Source: Chiloscyllium plagiosum (lineage: Eukaryota). Taken from it: a stretch of 30,288 bases of DNA. Position numbers and translations under genes: made by a program. The notes beneath the pieces were generated by a model, which was given only the letters and a program-made list of their open reading frames with translations, did no database searches and was not told the DNA's origin. The stretch is taken from the NCBI RefSeq assembly GCF_004010195.1, contig NC_057758.1, forward strand, positions 3,602,269-3,632,556, read 5' to 3'. Shown piece by piece: positions 8,320 through 30,288 of this stretch (position 1 is its first letter; every line of letters begins with the position of its first letter).

Positions 8320-8990
8320 GATTATTTGCATTTTAGAAAGGCAAATCAGAGCGGGACTGATACTCGTAATGGTCAGTTGCTGGGGAGGATGACAGAACAA
8401 AGAGACCTTGGAAGTGCAGGGTCACTGTTCCTTGAAAGGGGAATCACAGATAGAGAGGATAATGAAGAAGCTGATTTGCGTGCTTTCCATTATTGGACAT
8501 AGCATTGAGTATACAACGTGGGATTTCATGTTTCTGCTGTACAGGACATTGTTTAAGCCACATTTGGAATATTGTGTGAAATTCGGAAATCCCTTGCATT
8601 GGAAGGAATTTATAAAACTTGAAAACTTTCAGAAAATATTGACAAGGATGTTGCCAGGGTTGCAGGATTTGAGCAAGGTGGAGAGGTTGAAAAGTTTGAT
8701 GCTGTTTTCGTGGAATTTTGACGGCTGACGGTAATCTTGGAGATGTTTACAAAGTCAAGAGGGACATGGCTAAGATATTTTCTGTGGGAGTCCAGAACGA
8801 GAGGGCATTGGTACATGGTGGGAGGAGAAATATATAAAAGCAACTAAGGAACAACCATTTCGCACAGCGGGTGGGCATGTACGGAATGAGCTACCAGGGG
8901 ACTTGGTGGAAGCTGGCACATTGTATATGAATAGGAAGGGTTTGGAAGTATATGGGCCAGGTGCTGGAACATTCGGGAATATTGTGTGTT
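8320..8990 (+). mobile_element. CR1 LINE ORF2 C-terminal/3' fragment
   Basis: LYRTLFKPHLEYCVKF...LENFQKILTRMLPGLQDLSKVERL. Confidence 0.9.
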
Positions 8991-10599: not shown

Positions 10600-11500
10600 T
10601 TTTTTTGAAATAGTGCCAAAAGACTGGAGAATGGGAAATGTCGCCCCCTTGTTCAACATGTAGTGTAGAGACAACCTTGGTAATTATTGAACAGTGAGCC
10701 GTACGTCTCTTGTATGTTAAATTTTGGAAAATATTATAAGAGACATTTTTTACAATCATCAAGTAAGCAACACCACGGTTTTACGAACGGTGGGTCGTGC
10801 CTCAGAAACCTTATTGAAGTCTTTGTGAAGGTAGCCAAGCCGTTTGATGAGGGTAAAGTGGTGGGTGTGGTGTATATGGGTTTTAATAAAGTGTTTGTTA
10901 AGGTTTCATATCGTAGGCTATTGTGGAAATATAGAGGCACGGGAATGAGGAAGATCTACTGGTTTAGATCAGAAATTGACGAATTGGAAGAAGTCCGACG
11001 GTTGTGGCTCATGGGGAACGTGCATCCTGCAATTCAGCTAATAGTGGTGTACCGCAAGGATCTGTTTTGGTGTCACTGCTGCTTGTCATTTTTATAAATC
11101 ATCTGGATGAGTGCACAGAATGATGGGTTCGTAAATTTGTGAATGATACTAAGGCTGGTGGAGTTCTGGACAGTGGCAAAGGATGTCGCAGGCTACAGAG
11201 GGACGTAGGTAAGTTGCAGAGTTGTGTTGGGAGGTGGAAAATGGAGTTTGATGCGATCACGTGTGAGGAGATTCACGTTGGAATAAGTAACAAGAACACA
11301 GATTACGGGCAAATTGGCAATATTTTTGGCAGTGTGGATGAGCAGAGAGATCTTGGCGTCCATGAACATAGATCCCTGACCGTTGTTACTCAGTTTGATC
11401 GGGTTGTTAAGATGGTGTACAGTGTGTTAGAATTATTGGAAGAGGGATTGAGTTTCGGAGCCACAAGGTTCAGTTGCAACTGTTAAAAGAAAAACTCTGG
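10600..11500 (+). mobile_element. CR1 LINE ORF2 RT fragment, decayed
   Basis: VPKDWRMGNVAPLF; QHHGFTNGGSCLRNLIEVF...DEGKVVGVVYMGFNKVF; KFVNDTKAGG (FADD-derived); DEQRDLGVH. Confidence 0.92.
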
Positions 11501-12609: not shown

Positions 12610-13550
12610 GATTAGAACATTAGAACAAACTGTCTTCCCGCAAATTCAACCCCAACCCTGGGTCAGATATGTAGATGATACCTTTGTAATCATTAAAAAC
12701 ACAGAAATAGAGAACACACACTGGATCATCACTGCCACACTCACAGGAATCCGATTCACTAGAGAGGAAGAAAAGGACAACCAACTCCCATTCCTAGACG
12801 TGATGGTTTAGAGAACACCGAATGGAGAATTCACCACAAAGGTATACAGGAAAGCCACACACAGACCAAGTCCTAAACTACGAAAGTAACCACCCCAACA
12901 CACACAAAAGAAGTTGGATCAAGACACTATTCAAAAGGGCCACAACACACTGCAGTACACCAGAACTGCAAAAAGAGGAAGAAGAACACCTATACAATGT
13001 ATTCGCCAAAAACGGAGACCCCCGCAATTTCATCAACAGATGTCTAAGAGAAAGACAACAGAATGAGGACATGCCACAACCCAAAGGACTAGCCACACTA
13101 CCATACATCAAAAACATTTCTGAACTGACAGCCAAACTACTGCGACCACTAAGACTCATAACAGCACACAAACCAACAGCCACTCTCAGACAACAACTCA
13201 CCAGGGCGAAGGACCCGATACCCAGCATGAGAAAAACGAATGTAGTGTCCAACATCCAATGCAAGGACTGCACAAAACTCTACATAGGACAAACAGGAAG
13301 ACAGCTAACGAACCGCATCCATGAACACCAACTAGCCACGAAACGACATGACCAGCTATCCTTCGTAGCCACACACTCAGATGACAAGGAACATGAGTTT
13401 GACTGGGACAACACTACTATTATAGGACAAGACAAACATAGAACAGCCAGGGATTTCCGAGAGGCACGGCACTCATCCACAGATTCAATCAATAAAGCAC
13501 ATCGACCTGGACCCAATATACCGGCCACTGCAGTGGACAGCTGGGACTGA
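12610..13550 (+). pseudogene. PLE reverse transcriptase (C-terminal part) plus GIY-YIG endonuclease, frameshifted
   Basis: ORFs 12551-12811 and 12822-13550 carry the YVDD and YIG motifs. Stop/frameshift near 12810-12860; the VY of the GIY-like motif is mutated to VS. Confidence 0.9.
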
Positions 13551-14783
13551 CAACAGGAAGCAGCAGATACAAATCACTATAAATGCCGGACGAAACATCA
13601 TAGAAGCGCTTCACAGGAGGGTCCCAAGCACTGAGGATGTCACCGAGACAGGGGACGAAACGTCTGCAACACAAATTCCCAGCTCGGCGAACAGAACTAC
13701 AACAACGAGCACCCAAGCTCCAAATCTTCTAAAAAACTTAGAATGGAATAATTTATGCCGTCCCTTATTTATTCAGTTGGGCACATGCGGAAATTAGCAG
13801 CTTTGATGTGGAATAAAGTATTTCTTGAAATATTACAATTAATTAACATAATTTGACTTCAGTGATCCAAAACCAACACTGAACACAATTTAAATCATCT
13901 TATTTATCCGACGTTTCAAACTTTCTAATCTCTGTTTGGTTTCCTTCCATGGCTCATCTCATAGTAACCCTCAGTCAAGGAATATATTCCAAAGATTGCA
14001 TGGTATTTTGACAGTTTGAGGTAGTTTCATTCGCATCTTTTGAAAGTGTTGGCAATATCTCGCCAGTGATAAAGGGCCTGAATCTCAAACCTCAATTTAG
14101 TCTATTAAACTAACGTCTGAAAATCAAATTGCGTGTGGCAGTTACTATGGAGAAATTAATCGAAGGCAAGCGGAATAGCGTTCATTAACACAACAGAAAG
14201 TTCTCACTTGATTGATGATATTATTACCATCACGTTTCCCCTTTAAAGTTTGTCTGTGCTCTGTATTTCCGTTTCAACGAATTGCTTGAGAAGAAAGGAA
14301 CATACTCATGAACTGTATCTGGTAAGCATTGAGAAGAATTGCAAACACGGCGCTCGCTGCAGGACACGATGAAATTATTTCACTGTTCTCATAATGGACT
14401 AAATAGGAATTCAGGTTAACTGAGGGATCATCTGCAATGTACATTTAAGCGGAAATGGTTTGTTACGATATTGATGGTGAACTTCGAGCCTGTACAATTA
14501 GGAAAAGGATGTAAGTTGCAGGCAGATTAACTGGATTTTGAAAACACAGATTCTGCTATCAGGTATTGCCACTTTTCACATGCACGATCAACAAGAAAAA
14601 CCAACAATGTTACCGACGGTATACATAATTTACGTTCAGTTCTAATCGTACGGGTGAATTCTTGCAGGCTCTCCCCACCTCCCTTTCCCATTCATACAAA
14701 ACTGATCATAAAATAACAGTGCTAATTAGTTTTTATATGATTCTCATACAGATATAGAACACTGCCATCTGCATTTGCATATT
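13111..14783 (+). repeat. Copy 1 of ~1.67 kb direct duplication flanking the gap
   Basis: Aligns collinearly with 15284-16964, with scattered substitutions and small indels. Confidence 0.97.
13628..13667 (+). ncRNA. Minimal type I hammerhead ribozyme motif
   Basis: GCA-CTGAGGA-t-GTCaCC gagaca GGgGAC-GAAA-C-GTC-TGC. Stem I GCA/TGC, stem II GTC/GAC, ACGU palindrome; predicted cleavage after C13664. Confidence 0.85.
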
Positions 14784-15283
14784 NNNNNNNNNNNNNNNNN
14801 NNNNNNNNNNNNNNNNNNNNNNNNNNNNNNNNNNNNNNNNNNNNNNNNNNNNNNNNNNNNNNNNNNNNNNNNNNNNNNNNNNNNNNNNNNNNNNNNNNNN
14901 NNNNNNNNNNNNNNNNNNNNNNNNNNNNNNNNNNNNNNNNNNNNNNNNNNNNNNNNNNNNNNNNNNNNNNNNNNNNNNNNNNNNNNNNNNNNNNNNNNNN
15001 NNNNNNNNNNNNNNNNNNNNNNNNNNNNNNNNNNNNNNNNNNNNNNNNNNNNNNNNNNNNNNNNNNNNNNNNNNNNNNNNNNNNNNNNNNNNNNNNNNNN
15101 NNNNNNNNNNNNNNNNNNNNNNNNNNNNNNNNNNNNNNNNNNNNNNNNNNNNNNNNNNNNNNNNNNNNNNNNNNNNNNNNNNNNNNNNNNNNNNNNNNNN
15201 NNNNNNNNNNNNNNNNNNNNNNNNNNNNNNNNNNNNNNNNNNNNNNNNNNNNNNNNNNNNNNNNNNNNNNNNNNNNNNNNNNN
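14784..15283. other. Assembly gap (500 N)
   Basis: Run of exactly 500 N. Confidence 1.
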
Positions 15284-16964
15284 AAAACATTTCTGAACTG
15301 ACAGCCAGACGACTGCGACCACTCGGACTCATAACAGCACACAAACCAACTGCCACTCTCAGACAACAACTCACCAGGACGAAGGATCCGATACCCAGCA
15401 TGAGAAAAAACGAATGTACTGTACAAATCCCCATGCAAGAACTGCACAAAACTCTGCATAGGACAAACAGGAAGACAGCTAACGATCCGCATCCATGAAC
15501 ACCAACTAGCCACAAAACGACATGACCAGCTATCCTTAGTAGCCACACACTCAGATGACAAGGAACATGGGTTTGACTGGGACAACACTACTAATATAGG
15601 ACAAGACAAACACAGAACAGCCAGGGATTTCCGAGAGGCACGGCACTAATTCACAGATTCAATCAATAAAGCATATCGACCTGGACCCAATATACCGGCC
15701 ACTGCAGCGGACCGCTGGGACTGACAACCGGAAGCAGCAGATACAAATCACTATAAATGCCGGAGGAAACATCACAGAAGCGCTTCACAGGAGACTCCCA
15801 AGCACTGAGGATGTCACATAGACAGGGGACGAAACGTCTGCAACACAAATTCCCAGCTCAGCGAACAGAACGACAACAACGAGCACCCGAGCTACAAATC
15901 TTCTCATAATTTTAGAATGGAATAATTTATGCCGTCCCTCATTTATTCATTTGGACACATGGGGAAATAAACAGCTTTGACGTGGAATAAAGTATTTCTT
16001 GAAATATTACAATTAATTAACATAATTTGACTTCAGTGATCCAAAACCAGCACTGAACACAACCTAAATAATCTTATTTATCCGACGTTTCAACCTTTCT
16101 AATCTCTGTTGGGTTTCCTTCCATGGCTCATCTCATAGTAACCCTCAGCTATGGAATATATTCCAAAGAATTCATGGTATCTTGACAGTTTGAGGTAGTT
16201 TCATCCGCATCTTTTGAAAGTGATGGTAATATCTCACCAGTGCTAAAGGGCCTGAATCTCAAACTTCAATTTAGCCTATTAAACTAATGTCTGAAAATCG
16301 AATTGCGTGTGCCAGTTACTATGGAGACGTTAATTCAAGGCGACTGGAATAGCGTTCAGTAACACAACAGAAAGTTCTCAAAATTGTTGATATTATTACC
16401 GCCACGTTTCCCCTTTAAAGTTTGTCTGTGCTCTGTATTTCCGTTTCAATGAATTGCTTGAGAAGAAAGGAACATGCTCATGAACTGTATCTGGTAAGCA
16501 TTGAGAAGAATTGCAAACACGGCGTTCGCTGCTGGACACGATGAAATTATTTCACTATTCTCATAATGGACTAAATAGGAACGCAGGTTAACTGAGGGAC
16601 CATCTGCAATGTGCATTTAAGCGGAAATGGTTTGTTACGATATTGATGGTGAACTTCGAGCCTGTACAATTATGAAAACGATGTAAGTTGCAGGCAGATA
16701 AACTGGATTTTGAAAACACACATTCTGCTATCAGGTATTGCCACTTTTCACGTGCATGATAAACAAGAAAAATCAACAATGTTACCGAAGGTATACATAA
16801 TTTACGTTCAATTCTAATCGAACGGGTGAATTATTGTACATGCTGCAGGCTCTCCCCACCTCCCTTTCCCATTCATACAAAACCGCTCATAAAATAACAG
16901 TGCTAATTCTTTTTTTTATGACTCTCATAAAGATATAGAATATTGCCATCTGCATTTGCATATT
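15284..16964 (+). repeat. Copy 2 of ~1.67 kb duplication; includes the PLE 3' part (15284-15913)
   Basis: Same PLE 3' end, same TSD sequence (15914-15926) and same downstream flank as copy 1. Confidence 0.97.
15802..15841 (+). ncRNA. Minimal type I hammerhead ribozyme motif (second copy)
   Basis: GCA-CTGAGGA-t-GTCacatagacaggGGAC-GAAA-C-GTC-TGC. Confidence 0.82.
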
Positions 16965-26255: not shown

Positions 26256-27012
26256 ACAAAAAACATACAACATACAACCTCACAGCGCAGATTAGGCCCT
26301 TCGACAATCGATGTTACGCCGACCTCTGAAACCAATCTGCAGCCCGGCTTATCGACACTATTCCATTTTCATCCATACATTTATCCAATGACCACTTAAA
26401 TGACCTTAAAGCTGGCGAATCTGCTATTGTTGCTGGCTGTCCGATCCGCATTCCTCCTACTGTCTGAATAAAGAAACTACCTCTGACGTCTTTCTAATAT
26501 CGATCACAACTCAATTTAATGCTCTGTCCCTTCATGCCAGCCATTACCACTCGAGGAAAAAGGTTGTCACTCCCCACCCTATCTAACCCTCTGATTGTCT
26601 GATATGTCTCAATTAAGTCAACTTTCAACCTTCTTTTCTATAACGAAAATGCATCAACTCCCTCAGCCTTTCCTCATATGACCTCCACTCCATGCCAGGC
26701 AGCAATCACGTCAATCTCCTTTTAACACTTTCTAACGCTTCCACATATTTCTGGTAATCTGGTGACCACAACTATAAGCAGTACACAAGTGCTGCCACAC
26801 CAGAGTTTTGTGTTGTTGCAACATGACCTCATGGTTCCAAAACTCAATCTTTCTACCAATAAATGGTGACTTACTATATGCCTTCTTAAAAATCTGATCA
26901 ATCTGGGTGGCAACTTTCAGGGATCTATGCACATGGACACGCTGGTCTCTCTGCTCATCGATACAACTAAGAAACTTGCTATTAGCACAGTATTCATTAT
27001 TCAATATTCGTA
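26256..27012 (-). mobile_element. CR1 LINE 3' fragment inserted in inverted orientation
   Basis: Tail aacatacaacatacaac...ggcccttcgac; minus ORF IDEQRDQRVHVHRSLKVATQID. Confidence 0.9.
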
Positions 27013-27019
27013 GCATCAA

Positions 27020-28645
27020 AAAATAATGGTCAGGCACCAACTGAGTGCAGGTTAGCTAACATTTTGCCTTCTTTAAGAGAAGATGTAAGTAGAATCCTGG
27101 GATCGACTGACCTGTGAGTGTGATTTTAATGATGTGAAATTACTTGAAAATGATTCTAAAAGACAAGATGTGTATGCATTTGAAGAGACTAAGTATAATT
27201 AAGGACTGTCTGCATGGTTTCATGCGATGTAAATCCTGTCTGAAAACATGATTGAGTTTTTTCCATGAAGTAGCCAAGAAGATTGACGAGGGCACAGCCG
27301 TCGATATTGTTTACTTCGACGTTAGTAAAGCCTTTACCAATTCTCCACATAGAAAAGTAATTTCCAACGTTTAATCACATGGAAATTAAGGTGACCATAC
27401 CAATTGGATTCCAAATTGATTTCATAGCAGGAGACAAGAGAGTGTGATTGTGTTATGTTATTCGGACTGTAGGACTGTAAGCAGCGGAATAACATAGGGA
27501 TCAGTACTGGGACCGCTCTTGCTTGTCACCTATGTTATGGACCAGGCGCAATCCATTTTAGAAATGTAGCTGAGACCCTAACATTCTTCTTATTTTACAT
27601 GTCCATGTGTAGTGGGTGTTGCAGGCGTGATGCAACTGGTCAAACCACTCGGCTATAAGCAAAACAGCTTATTAATTTAAAATCTACGGTTGAAACACGT
27701 GCAAAAGAAAACGGAATTTAGATTAACTTAACATTTGGAAAACTTAGTCAAATATTCGATACAGTAATTTACTAATGTACTAATTCAATATCATAACAAG
27801 CCAGAAACACACTCCGTGGCAAAAAGATAAATCAAACGCAGATTCTTGCAAGCAGAACGGAGCAACGTCCATAGAGAGCTCAGGAAAAGTCAGTAAGGAA
27901 TAATTTAATAAAGATTTCAACCTGTTTGTACTCAAACATCTTGTGACTGCAACAGCAAAACAAACAAACTAGAAACACCCTGAACAGGGAGAACTGCGTA
28001 CTCCCCCTGCATTCTTAACCGTTTTGTTTTCAAATAATCTGCAGACTGCCTAAAGCAAGACACTTAGGTGCTTCTGCTTTTACAAACTGTGCTCAAAACA
28101 ATATCAGTAGAGAATAACATTTGTAAAAAGACAGAATAGTGAAACTTATATTACTTACTTCGAGGAGAATATAGAAATCATAGTGGGTAGTGCTGCACTT
28201 AACATCAAGTTTGCTGGTTAGTGGGAAGTGAATATGGCTATCCTGTATTTAAAGAGGTCAAGATCGATTGGGCCAATGGACTGAACAGTGGGCAATCTCG
28301 TTTCGGAGGAATTGTGTTTTGGTAAAACAAAGACAACACTTAAACGATTGCAAGTAGGCCCTTCTGCAATGTTGTAGAAGAGAGACCTGGTGTTTCAATT
28401 TCATATATTTTAAAAATGTTGCGTCACATTTACGTATGGTGGCTAAGAAAGCGTTTAGCATGCTTGCTGTCATTGTTTAGACCTTTGTATATATGAATTT
28501 AGCCGTCACATCAGACTGTACAGGAGATTGGTGAGGCCTCTTCTGGAGTACTCCTTCCAGTTCTACTCTCCCTGTTGTAGGAAGGATATTACTGAACTGC
28601 AAAGGGTTCAGAAGAGCTTTCCCAGAATGTTGCTGGGAATTCAGT
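27020..28645 (+). mobile_element. Decayed CR1 ORF2 RT, interrupted by a solo LTR
   Basis: IDEGTAVDIVYFDVSKAF; *GSVLGPLL; resumes after 28148 with IKFAG.., LVRPLLEY..QF, LQRVQKSFPRML. Confidence 0.9.
27533..28144 (-). mobile_element. Solo LTR (Gypsy-like) nested in CR1
   Basis: About 610 bp noncoding insert splitting CR1 RT. Begins TGTTATGGAC (reverse complement gtccataaca, similar to the LTR end gtccatgaca at 19706). Flanks CCTA (27529-32) and CTTA (28145-48) form a near-perfect 4-bp TSD. Confidence 0.7.
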
Positions 28646-28654
28646 TTTTAATCA

Positions 28655-28962
28655 CTTCTGTCGTTTAAGTGACCTGTATAAGAAGGATGAATTGCACCTA
28701 AATGAGAAGGTGACTAATGCACTGGCGGGGAGATATGCTAAATCTGCTCGTAGGGATTAAAACGAATAAGGTGCTGGAGCGTCGGGGGAAGGTGGAAACA
28801 TCGCGTTGAAAGAAATCAGTCTTAGATTGGTACACTTGGGTAACAGAGCAAGTCAGTCAGTGGAAGCAGGGATAGAGCTGAGAACGAGGCAGAACTGCCA
28901 AATGAATCTACATTTATTTCAACATAAGAGTCTGAACAGGGAAAGCAGATGAACTCAAGGCA
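28655..28962 (+). mobile_element. Old CR1 ORF1-end/ORF2-start fragment
   Basis: DLYKKDELHLN..TNALAGRYA; then YIYFNI..TGKADELKA (APE N-terminus). Confidence 0.8.
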
Positions 28963-29136
28963 GTGCAATGTTCCTCCTGCAACATGTATGAGGTGAGGGA
29001 TGCCATCGACTTCCCTGCCGATTACACTTGCAGGAACAGGGAAAGCAGATGAACTCAAGGCAGTGCAATGTTCCTCCTGCAACATGTATGAGGTGAGGGA
29101 TGCCATCGACTTCCCTGCCGATTACACTTGCAGGAA
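28934..29136 (+). repeat. Perfect 100-bp tandem duplication
   Basis: 28934-29033 is identical to 29034-29133, plus 3 nt (GAA) overlap. Confidence 0.97.
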
Positions 29137-29974
29137 GTGCACCCATCTCCAGCTCCTCCAAGACCGTGTTAGGGAACTGGAGCTGGAGTTGGATGAACTC
29201 CGGATCATTCGGGAGGCAGAGGGGGCCATAGATCAGAGTTATAGGGAAGTAGTAACTCCAAAGATGGCAGATAGATGGGTGACAGTGAGGGGGACTGGGA
29301 GGAAGCAGCCAGTGCAGGGACCCCCTGCGGCCGTTCCCCTCAAGAACAAGTATACCGTTTTGGATACTTGTGGGGGGGATGACTTACCAGGGGTAAGTAA
29401 CGGGGCTCAGGTCTCTGGCACGGAGCCTGTCCCCGTTACTCAGAAGGGAAGGGTGAAGAAGAGCAGAGCAGTAGTAATTGGGGACTCGATAGTTCGTGGC
29501 ACAGATAGGCGGTTTTGTGGGAACGAGAGAGACTCACGTTTGATATGTTGCCTCCCAGGTGCAAGGGTACGTGATGTCTCTGATCGTGGTTTCGGGGTCC
29601 GGGAGGGGGAGGGGGAGCAGCCCGAAGTCGTGGTCCACATTGGCACCAACGACATAGGTAGGAGGAGTGCCGAGGATGTTAGACAGGCTTTCAGGGAGCT
29701 AGGTTGGAAGCTTGGAGTTAGAACAAACAGAGTTGTTGTCTCTGGTTTGTTACCCGTGCCACGTGATAGAGATTCGAGGAATAGGGAGAGAGAACAATTA
29801 AATGCGTGGCTCCAGGGATGGTGCAGGAGGGAGGGGTTCCAGTTTTTGGATAACTGGGGTTCTTTCTGGGGACGGTGGGACCTCTATAAACAGAATGGTC
29901 TACACCTGAACCTGAGGGGCACCAGTATCCTTGGGGGGAGGTTCGCTAGTGCTCTTCGGGGGGGTTTAAACTAA
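29057..29974 (+). CDS. CR1 LINE ORF1p: CxxC...CxxC zinc finger, coiled coil, SGNH/GDSL esterase; native start codon missing
   Basis: Uninterrupted frame: CSSC..CRKC; LQLLQDRVRELELELDEL; blocks VIGDSIVRG, LPGARV, VVHIGTND, NGLHLN. The ORF-track N-terminus (29000-29056) comes from the duplication/junction. Confidence 0.93.
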   Translation, partial: KAVQCSSCNMYEVRDAIDFPADYTCRKCTHLQLLQDRVRELELELDELRIIREAEGAIDQSYREVVTPKMADRWVTVRGTGRKQPVQGPPAAVPLKNKYTVLDTCGGDDLPGVSNGAQVSGTEPVPVTQKGRVKKSRAVVIGDSIVRGTDRRFCGNERDSRLICCLPGARVRDVSDRGFGVREGEGEQPEVVVHIGTNDIGRRSAEDVRQAFRELGWKLGVRTNRVVVSGLLPVPRDRDSRNREREQLNAWLQGWCRREGFQFLDNWGSFWGRWDLYKQNGLHLNLRGTSILGGRFASALRGGLN

Positions 29975-30288
29975 CTCTGCAGGGGCATGGGAACCCAGAT
30001 TGTAGCTTCAGGATGCAGGGCCTGGAGTGTAGGGAGGTGAGGAACATGGCATCAATTTCCAAGGAGGATGCCTGTAAACAGGAAAGTGGCTTGAAGTGTG
30101 TATACTTCAATGCAAGAAGTATACGAAATAAGGTAGGTGAACTTGCAGCGTGGGTTGGTACCTGGGACTTCGATGTTGTGGCTATTACGGAGACATGGCT
30201 AGAACAGGGACAGGATTGGCTGTGGCAGGTTCCAGGATTTAAATGTTGTGGGGGGGGCGGAGGTGGGGGTAAAAGAGGGGGAGGTATG
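29950..30288 (+). CDS. CR1 LINE ORF2p N-terminus (APE-type endonuclease), runs off the window
   Basis: Frame is open from 29950 (after TAG 29947-49); ATGs at 30013 and 30046; LKCVYFNARSIRNKVGELAAWVGTWDFDVVAITETWL. Confidence 0.92.
29962..29971 (+). promoter_or_regulatory. Candidate -1 programmed ribosomal frameshift site (G GGU UUA AAC)
   Basis: Two overlapping X XXY YYZ heptamers in the ORF1 frame immediately before TAA; the -1 frame is ORF2. Confidence 0.65.

Follow-up and report, generated by a model that had tools for sequence, protein, structure and literature searches.

How ORF2 is translated in CR1-type LINEs is the question raised by a junction near the 3' end of the window, by which is meant the whole stretch of 30,288 nt of Chiloscyllium plagiosum DNA analysed here (NC_057758.1, positions 3,602,269 to 3,632,556, forward strand). 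There, the 3' end of ORF1 reads GGG GGT TTA AAC TAA, and a preliminary description had proposed a -1 ribosomal frameshift giving an ORF1-ORF2 fusion, with two overlapping slippery heptamers and a downstream stem. CR1 is a dominant class of repeats in sharks, reptiles and birds. Among the papers listed by full-text searches, judged mostly by title and not including the original chicken and turtle CR1 descriptions of 1997, none reports CR1 frameshifting. Comparative sequence data give strong support to the junction being a real, deeply conserved recoding-type signal, and programmed -1 frameshifting yielding an esterase-EN-RT fusion is its probable function, at a probability of about 0.78. The core of the earlier proposal has withstood the refutation tests that could be run, whereas its second heptamer and its stem have not. 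The features concerned are as follows.

28997..29974, + strand: ORF1 of a young CR1-type LINE copy (stop-to-stop coordinates; the copy is 5'-truncated)
28997..29974, + strand: ORF1 domains, a Cys-rich N-terminus and a GDSL/SGNH esterase (PF13472, E 6e-12)
29965..29971, + strand: slippery heptamer U_UUA_AAC, in X_XXY_YYZ phase and predicted to be where the -1 shift occurs
29972..29974, + strand: ORF1 stop codon, immediately 3' of the heptamer (one codon further in one lineage)
29972..29981, + strand: 10-nt spacer, fixed in length and variable in sequence
29982..29991, + strand: G-tract, candidate 3' stimulator, with G4-5 at +11 to +15 and then GGG at +18 to +20
29950..30288, + strand: ORF2 frame (-1), comprising the linker and then the APE endonuclease start; the window ends within ORF2
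30046..30048, + strand: in-frame ATG retained by the window's family, a possible alternative ORF2 start
28696..28960, + strand: older decayed CR1 copy of a different lineage, with an eroded junction at 28757-28766

Both heptamers (G_GGT_TTA at 29962-68 and T_TTA_AAC at 29965-71) were confirmed at these positions and in X_XXY_YYZ phase, as were an ORF2 frame opening at 29950 in -1 relative to ORF1 with an overlap of 25 nt, and the ATGs reported at 30013 and 30046. The eroded junction noted upstream (28757-66) proved to belong to a decayed copy of another lineage (71% identity over 265 nt), with its heptamer in register. The young 5'-truncated copy lies within this older one, and an exact 100-bp tandem duplication (window 28934-29136) lies across the join of the old-copy endonuclease start and the young copy. 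The window copy is best read as a dead member of a recently active family. Of 2347 ORF1 codon steps, just 9 have a canonical heptamer in phase; TTTAAAC itself occurs 9 times in the window against 7.1 expected, which is chance level, so that a single occurrence is unremarkable and the weight of the evidence lies in conservation rather than in the window copy.

The SGNH/GDSL esterase by which CR1-type LINEs are recognised is present in ORF1, whose profile matches 4c1b, a LINE ORF1 esterase of the same family (E 8e-46), from zebrafish ZfL2-1. The ORF2 frame carries an Exo_endo_phos match (Pfam) and, in the sister copy L253, 825 codons are open from the heptamer through EN and RT, with PF03372 and PF00078 in one frame that matches L1 ORF2p. 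In place of poly(A), CR1-type LINEs have a short tandem-repeat tail at the 3' end; among sister-copy 3' ends a 7-nt tandem tail was seen in L264 and shorter tandem tails in L254 and L258. The label CR1 is an assumption based on the ORF1/ORF2 architecture. Among named ORF1 relatives, the nearest come from sharks and rays, and no relatives of the element were found in the viral contigs or prokaryote genomes searched. One protein labelled Pseudomonas aeruginosa in the database (P0007) is 71% identical to the window ORF1, a label that probably reflects host contamination.

Conservation of the junction was assessed in the same genome and beyond. ORF1 ends were retrieved from the C. plagiosum genome with four foreign ORF1 proteins, the end of the window's ORF1 and five DNA queries, taking the best matches out of thousands of candidates together with 60 lower-ranked places from one list, and an HMM lacking the final seven residues of ORF1 was used to place the junctions. 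The matches listed comprise 298 distinct junctions, 22 unreadable and 276 readable, which sort into six lineages, with single copies hinting at more. Among these matches, the exact heptamer is found at 237 of the 276 readable junctions, with one mismatch at 26 and missing at 13, the misses including rearranged or decayed copies and spurious second matches; by lineage, again among the matches listed, the exact heptamer is found in 30/30, 26/28, 25/28, 25/30, 16/20 and 28/29 copies. It is in phase with ORF1 in 30/30, 28/28, 27/28, 29/30 and 27/29 copies of five lineages and in 9/18 of another, in which a G-run 25 nt upstream differs in length among copies. Two single copies of further lineages, L416 and a second copy in L394, have a heptamer with a single differing base and share the G pattern downstream.

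Outside this genome, a metagenome scan gave 39 loci, 20 of which reach the ORF1 C-terminus; 5 of those stop short of the junction and 15 are readable, showing T_TTA_AAC in 13, G_TTA_AAC in one (L066, with sea-cucumber proteins as its closest named relatives at 53-55%) and neither in one weak match. Most of the other metagenome loci are presumably of bird CR1 type. At the protein level, 50 of 61 matches reaching the C-terminal motif end in Leu-Asn, including ray, Xenopus, lizard and turtle sequences, and in another 2 this pair is followed by one or two further residues. Three distant esterases found by that search (P0095, P0100 and P0101, one of them fish-named) lack the Leu-Asn end, and the signal is therefore not common to all esterase LINEs. 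Loss of the heptamer or of the -1 phase among CR1 families had been put forward as an argument against a shift; both are conserved across lineages.

Conservation of two terminal residues could in principle reflect the protein rather than the RNA. A codon control was made with one real copy per lineage (n=12, after 3 of 15 chosen copies were dropped for want of a long stop-free ORF1), whose ORF1s share 21-71% pairwise identity (median 34%). Two copies were left uncounted, one with an upstream G-run indel and L064, which ends TGT TTA AAC TAG. In the remaining 10, the terminal Leu is always encoded by TTA and the Asn by AAC, preceded by T in 9 copies and by G in the other, whereas all 30 of the other conserved degenerate ORF1 columns use two or more codons and TTA provides 25 of 192 Leu codons (13%) in the control set. 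Nucleotide conservation thus exceeds the need of the protein, with the heptamer codons fixed and the control columns variable, and the control excludes protein-level selection for Leu-Asn.

The conserved unit is U_UUA_AAC and not its surroundings. The second heptamer proposed earlier, G_GGU_UUA, is limited to some lineages: the two bases preceding U_UUA_AAC vary, and since the residue before Leu-Asn ranges over 10 amino acids, G_GGU_UUA is incidental. In one lineage (L128/L133-L162), ORF1 ends Leu-Asn-Phe-stop, with the stop one codon later and the heptamer intact, and the Callorhinchus protein P0060 ends Leu-Asn-Tyr, from which it follows that the stop need not adjoin the heptamer. Among 20 echinoderm-like ORF1 relatives, 8 end in Leu-Asn, 8 in Ser-Asn (P0112-P0114, P0117, P0118, P0120, P0122 and P0126) and 4 otherwise, so that U_UUA_AAC, as judged at the protein level, is not universal; the Ser-Asn ends may possibly represent a variant shift site keeping the A-site half alone.

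Downstream of the heptamer, the -1 frame is open into the endonuclease, as expected of a frameshift cassette, over a linker of 39 to 70 codons. The endonuclease motif lies in -1 in 29/30, 16/19, 18/21, 14/24, 12/16 and 21/23 resolved copies of the six lineages, with four family samples taken by DNA queries across the junction and so biased toward the frame of the query; in an earlier sample from the same genome, two lineages showed just 10/20 and 2/6 in -1. Changes in the length of the G-run are frequent among copies and could account for those that are off frame. Stops between the heptamer and the first ATG, suggested earlier as evidence against a shift, are not common, and the linker is open in most readable copies. 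In 9 of 16 lineages the -1 frame opens only 1-5 codons upstream of the heptamer, so that any shift there has to take place at the heptamer site. Readthrough of the ORF1 stop in frame 0 was considered for a lineage in which 3 of 6 early copies had this arrangement and was rejected when a larger sample gave 18 copies in -1, 3 in +1 and none in 0. Apparent in-frame ORF1-ORF2 fusions (two long frames that were fetched and several others) turned out to be unreadable N stretches.

The 16 lineages are represented by one copy each (6 from this genome, 8 amniote-like, L064 and L066), chosen for the core hexamer; counts over them are not independent events, the lineages being related and 8 of the 16 coming from one amniote-like group. 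A start codon conserved at or near the ORF1 stop was not found in the 16, an AUG within 5 codons being present in 4. In three shark lineages, 18/18, 11/14 and 7/10 open copies lack an AUG ahead of the endonuclease motif, as does L064, and four long copies of AUG-less lineages have their first Met 84-144 codons in, two of them being frame-broken before that Met. The other 3 of the 6 shark lineages, the window's own included, retain an in-frame AUG in the linker. Conservation of the two window ATGs had been put forward as a check; the one at 30046 is kept in the window's family. The ATG at 30013 was rejected as the ORF2 start: it is a minority variant, the first Met in just 9 of 27 open copies, and the base there is G in 5/5 RNA reads.

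These observations bear on the strongest competitor of a frameshift, termination-reinitiation as for mammalian L1, in which ribosomes would restart near the ORF1 stop on an AUG or non-AUG codon to make free ORF2p, and the heptamer and G-tract would be a context that slows termination or retains the ribosome. The stop does adjoin the motif, an AUG lies at codon 4-5 just beyond it in 4 of 16 lineages and farther along the linker in 3 of the 6 shark lineages, an open linker would be expected likewise, and passages of PMC5009743 describe AUG-independent initiation of mammalian LINE ORF2 as likely. However, no start codon is common to all lineages, and 4 of the 16 have neither a cognate nor a near-cognate one in codons 3-16. 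Reinitiation would permit any frame, whereas ORF2 is in -1 in every resolved lineage, and it leaves unexplained the exact X_XXY_YYZ heptamer, its G_UUA_AAC variant and its retention where the stop has moved. It is accordingly regarded as improbable, at something like one chance in eight. Slippage in -1, by which ORF2, often AUG-less, is likely made given the shared heptamer and the G-run ten bases on, is preferred.

The element that could stimulate such slippage is not the one first proposed. The arms of the suggested stem (CTCTGCA with TGCAGGG) are indeed there, but shuffled versions of the region fold just as well (z 0.15 to 0.88). Of 30 sister copies, 21 keep the stem and 9 have it disrupted with no compensating change, and other lineages lack it. 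No shared 3' fold was detected in 15 foldable copies (z -1.8 to +1.5), folding that was not pseudoknot-aware gave zero consensus base pairs over 15 sequences, and no conserved stem-loop or pseudoknot was found 5-9 nt downstream by the same kind of folding; several lineages are too purine-rich downstream of the heptamer for local pairing. What is shared is a G-tract that the preliminary description had overlooked and that is the best candidate for the stimulator. In the 16 picked copies, G occupies +11, +12 and +14 in all, +13 in 15 and +15 in 14, a second GGG follows at +18 to +20 in 12-14, and the spacer bases vary freely, the tract beginning 3 nt earlier in L066. The usual spacer of a slippery site is 5-9 nt, and the 10 nt seen here is longer. 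Among the matches listed from the C. plagiosum genome, GGGG is present at +11 to +14 in 188 of 237 junctions. The Gly codon of the tract is GGG in 15 of 16 copies, compared with 57 of 208 Gly codons (27%) elsewhere in ORF2; with third codon positions fixed in this way, the G-tract is a signal at the nucleotide level. Only 3 of the 16 copies have a G-quadruplex as their predicted minimum-energy fold.

A C-rich motif of 26 nt is found upstream of ORF1, about 1.0-1.3 kb before the heptamer, in 5 of 6 lineages with divergent flanks (L003, L128, L257, L261, L263 and sister loci). It could be either a GC-box-like promoter element or the distant pairing partner of the G-tract. Its pairing with the G-tract on paper in five lineages, together with the self-complementary TTTAAA core, would suit a non-translational role of the junction in RNA packaging, in dimerisation by way of the palindromic core and the G-tract, or as an internal promoter, with ORF2 made in some other way, as would also have to be assumed had the Leu-Asn residues themselves been the object of selection. 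Matched motif and G-tract pairs, however, beat mismatched ones clearly in just 1 of 5 lineages, one lineage has no motif, and such an element needs neither a slippery phase at the ORF1 stop nor a fixed -1 frame, which makes this explanation a distinctly poor candidate beside translational slippage.

A change in the RNA itself, through transcriptional slippage, editing or splicing, could also place ORF1 and ORF2 in one frame. The site is flanked by homopolymer runs whose length differs from one dead copy to another, and a branch-point-like sequence and an AG precede the G-run in the window's family; the T3A3 core is nevertheless short and the AG is missing in several lineages. One polyA RNA run provided 170 reads on the element, with a depth of about 5-6 at the junction, and, among the variants listed for this shallow run, there was no splice joint or indel at the junction; a second run contained no reads, and the sequencing-run search listed no RNA run as containing the queried sequence. 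These reads, which are silent on translation, are weak evidence against splicing or slippage of the transcript. Altered RNAs would moreover be expected to retropose as fused in-frame copies, and the fused-looking frames examined are the N stretches mentioned above. An RNA-level change is thus the least credible of the explanations, its chances being very slight.

In the frameshift reading, most ribosomes would terminate and release the esterase protein, while a minority would pause with UUA and AAC in the P and A sites and slip back to UUU and AAA. The slipped ribosomes would produce an esterase-linker-EN-RT fusion, with a predicted window junction of ...GGLN-LTLQGHGNPD, and the rate of frameshifting would set the ORF1p:ORF2p ratio in the manner of gag and gag-pol. 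The pause is more weakly inferred, and might come from the adjacent stop and the G-tract, through a bound protein or a G-quadruplex, rather than from a stem-loop or pseudoknot.

The heptamer has well-studied counterparts. According to passages of PMC5009743, U_UUA_AAC ranks with the heptamers most prone to shifting on mammalian ribosomes and is the site used by IBV, in agreement with the earlier identification of UUUAAAC as the coronavirus slippery site, and equine arteritis virus has a G_UU(A) type. As in the coronavirus and arterivirus ORF1a/1b arrangement described in that source, the in-phase heptamer is near the end of the 5' ORF and the polymerase is in -1; the CR1 junction differs in belonging to a non-LTR retrotransposon, in a stop that abuts the heptamer, in a G-tract at +11 and in that no conserved stem-loop or pseudoknot was found. 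The PRRSV nsp2 frameshift is stimulated by nsp1beta and PCBP acting on a C-rich unstructured motif 11 nt 3' of the site, as reported in the same passages (PMC5009743). In CR1, too, the motif is short, unstructured and of low complexity, and it stands at a fixed and nearly equal distance from the site; the CR1 motif, however, is G-rich and its shift is deduced from sequence. Stimulation by G-quadruplexes is described there for synthetic constructs only, natural ones being unknown by 2016, and the searched two-thirds of PMC5009743 (300,000 of 449,034 characters) contain no mention of CR1.

Among retrotransposons, the closest parallel is provided by Dictyostelium TRE5-A and TRE3-A, for which a passage of PMC5911963 states that a -1 frameshift is required for ORF2. 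These are also APE-type non-LTR elements with ORF2 in -1, but they belong to another clade and another host, and the passage gives no slippery site or stimulator. Mammalian L1, as presented in the consulted part of PMC5009743, shares with CR1 a bicistronic LINE RNA, a need for little ORF2p and a perhaps dispensable AUG; it differs in having an inter-ORF spacer and in being thought to reinitiate to give free ORF2p, whereas the CR1 ORFs overlap in -1 and a fusion is predicted. The parts of PMC4255032, PMC4176376 and PMC3592465 covered here contain nothing on the ORF1/ORF2 junction. A 1992 paper by Ilves is said, from its title, to concern mammalian L1 ORF2 translation.

A broader reading, which is tentative and rather less likely to be right than wrong, is that an ancient LINE lineage extending from echinoderm-type to shark to amniote elements makes its RT as a gag-pol-like esterase-EN-RT polyprotein, with the G-tract at +11 and not a structure as stimulator. 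The tract might then be read by a host or element protein or act as a G-quadruplex, and would constitute an undescribed natural class of stimulator. The fixed G-tract is in any case a candidate natural structure-free frameshift stimulator, and the production of CR1 ORF2p where a reliable start codon is lacking lends itself to testing with a cassette some 40 nt long. A fusion, if true, would tether the esterase ORF1p to EN-RT, unlike in L1, and would alter how ORF2 is annotated and how it is expressed for assays.

The remainder of the window contains further repeats. More decayed pieces, similar to the RT or 3' part of this class of LINE, are found at 8393-8746, 10684-11486 and 26732-27055. A frame of 248 aa without a Pfam match occurs in two copies, at 12804-13550 and about 14700-15650, and presumably resembles the C-terminal part of a Penelope-like element.
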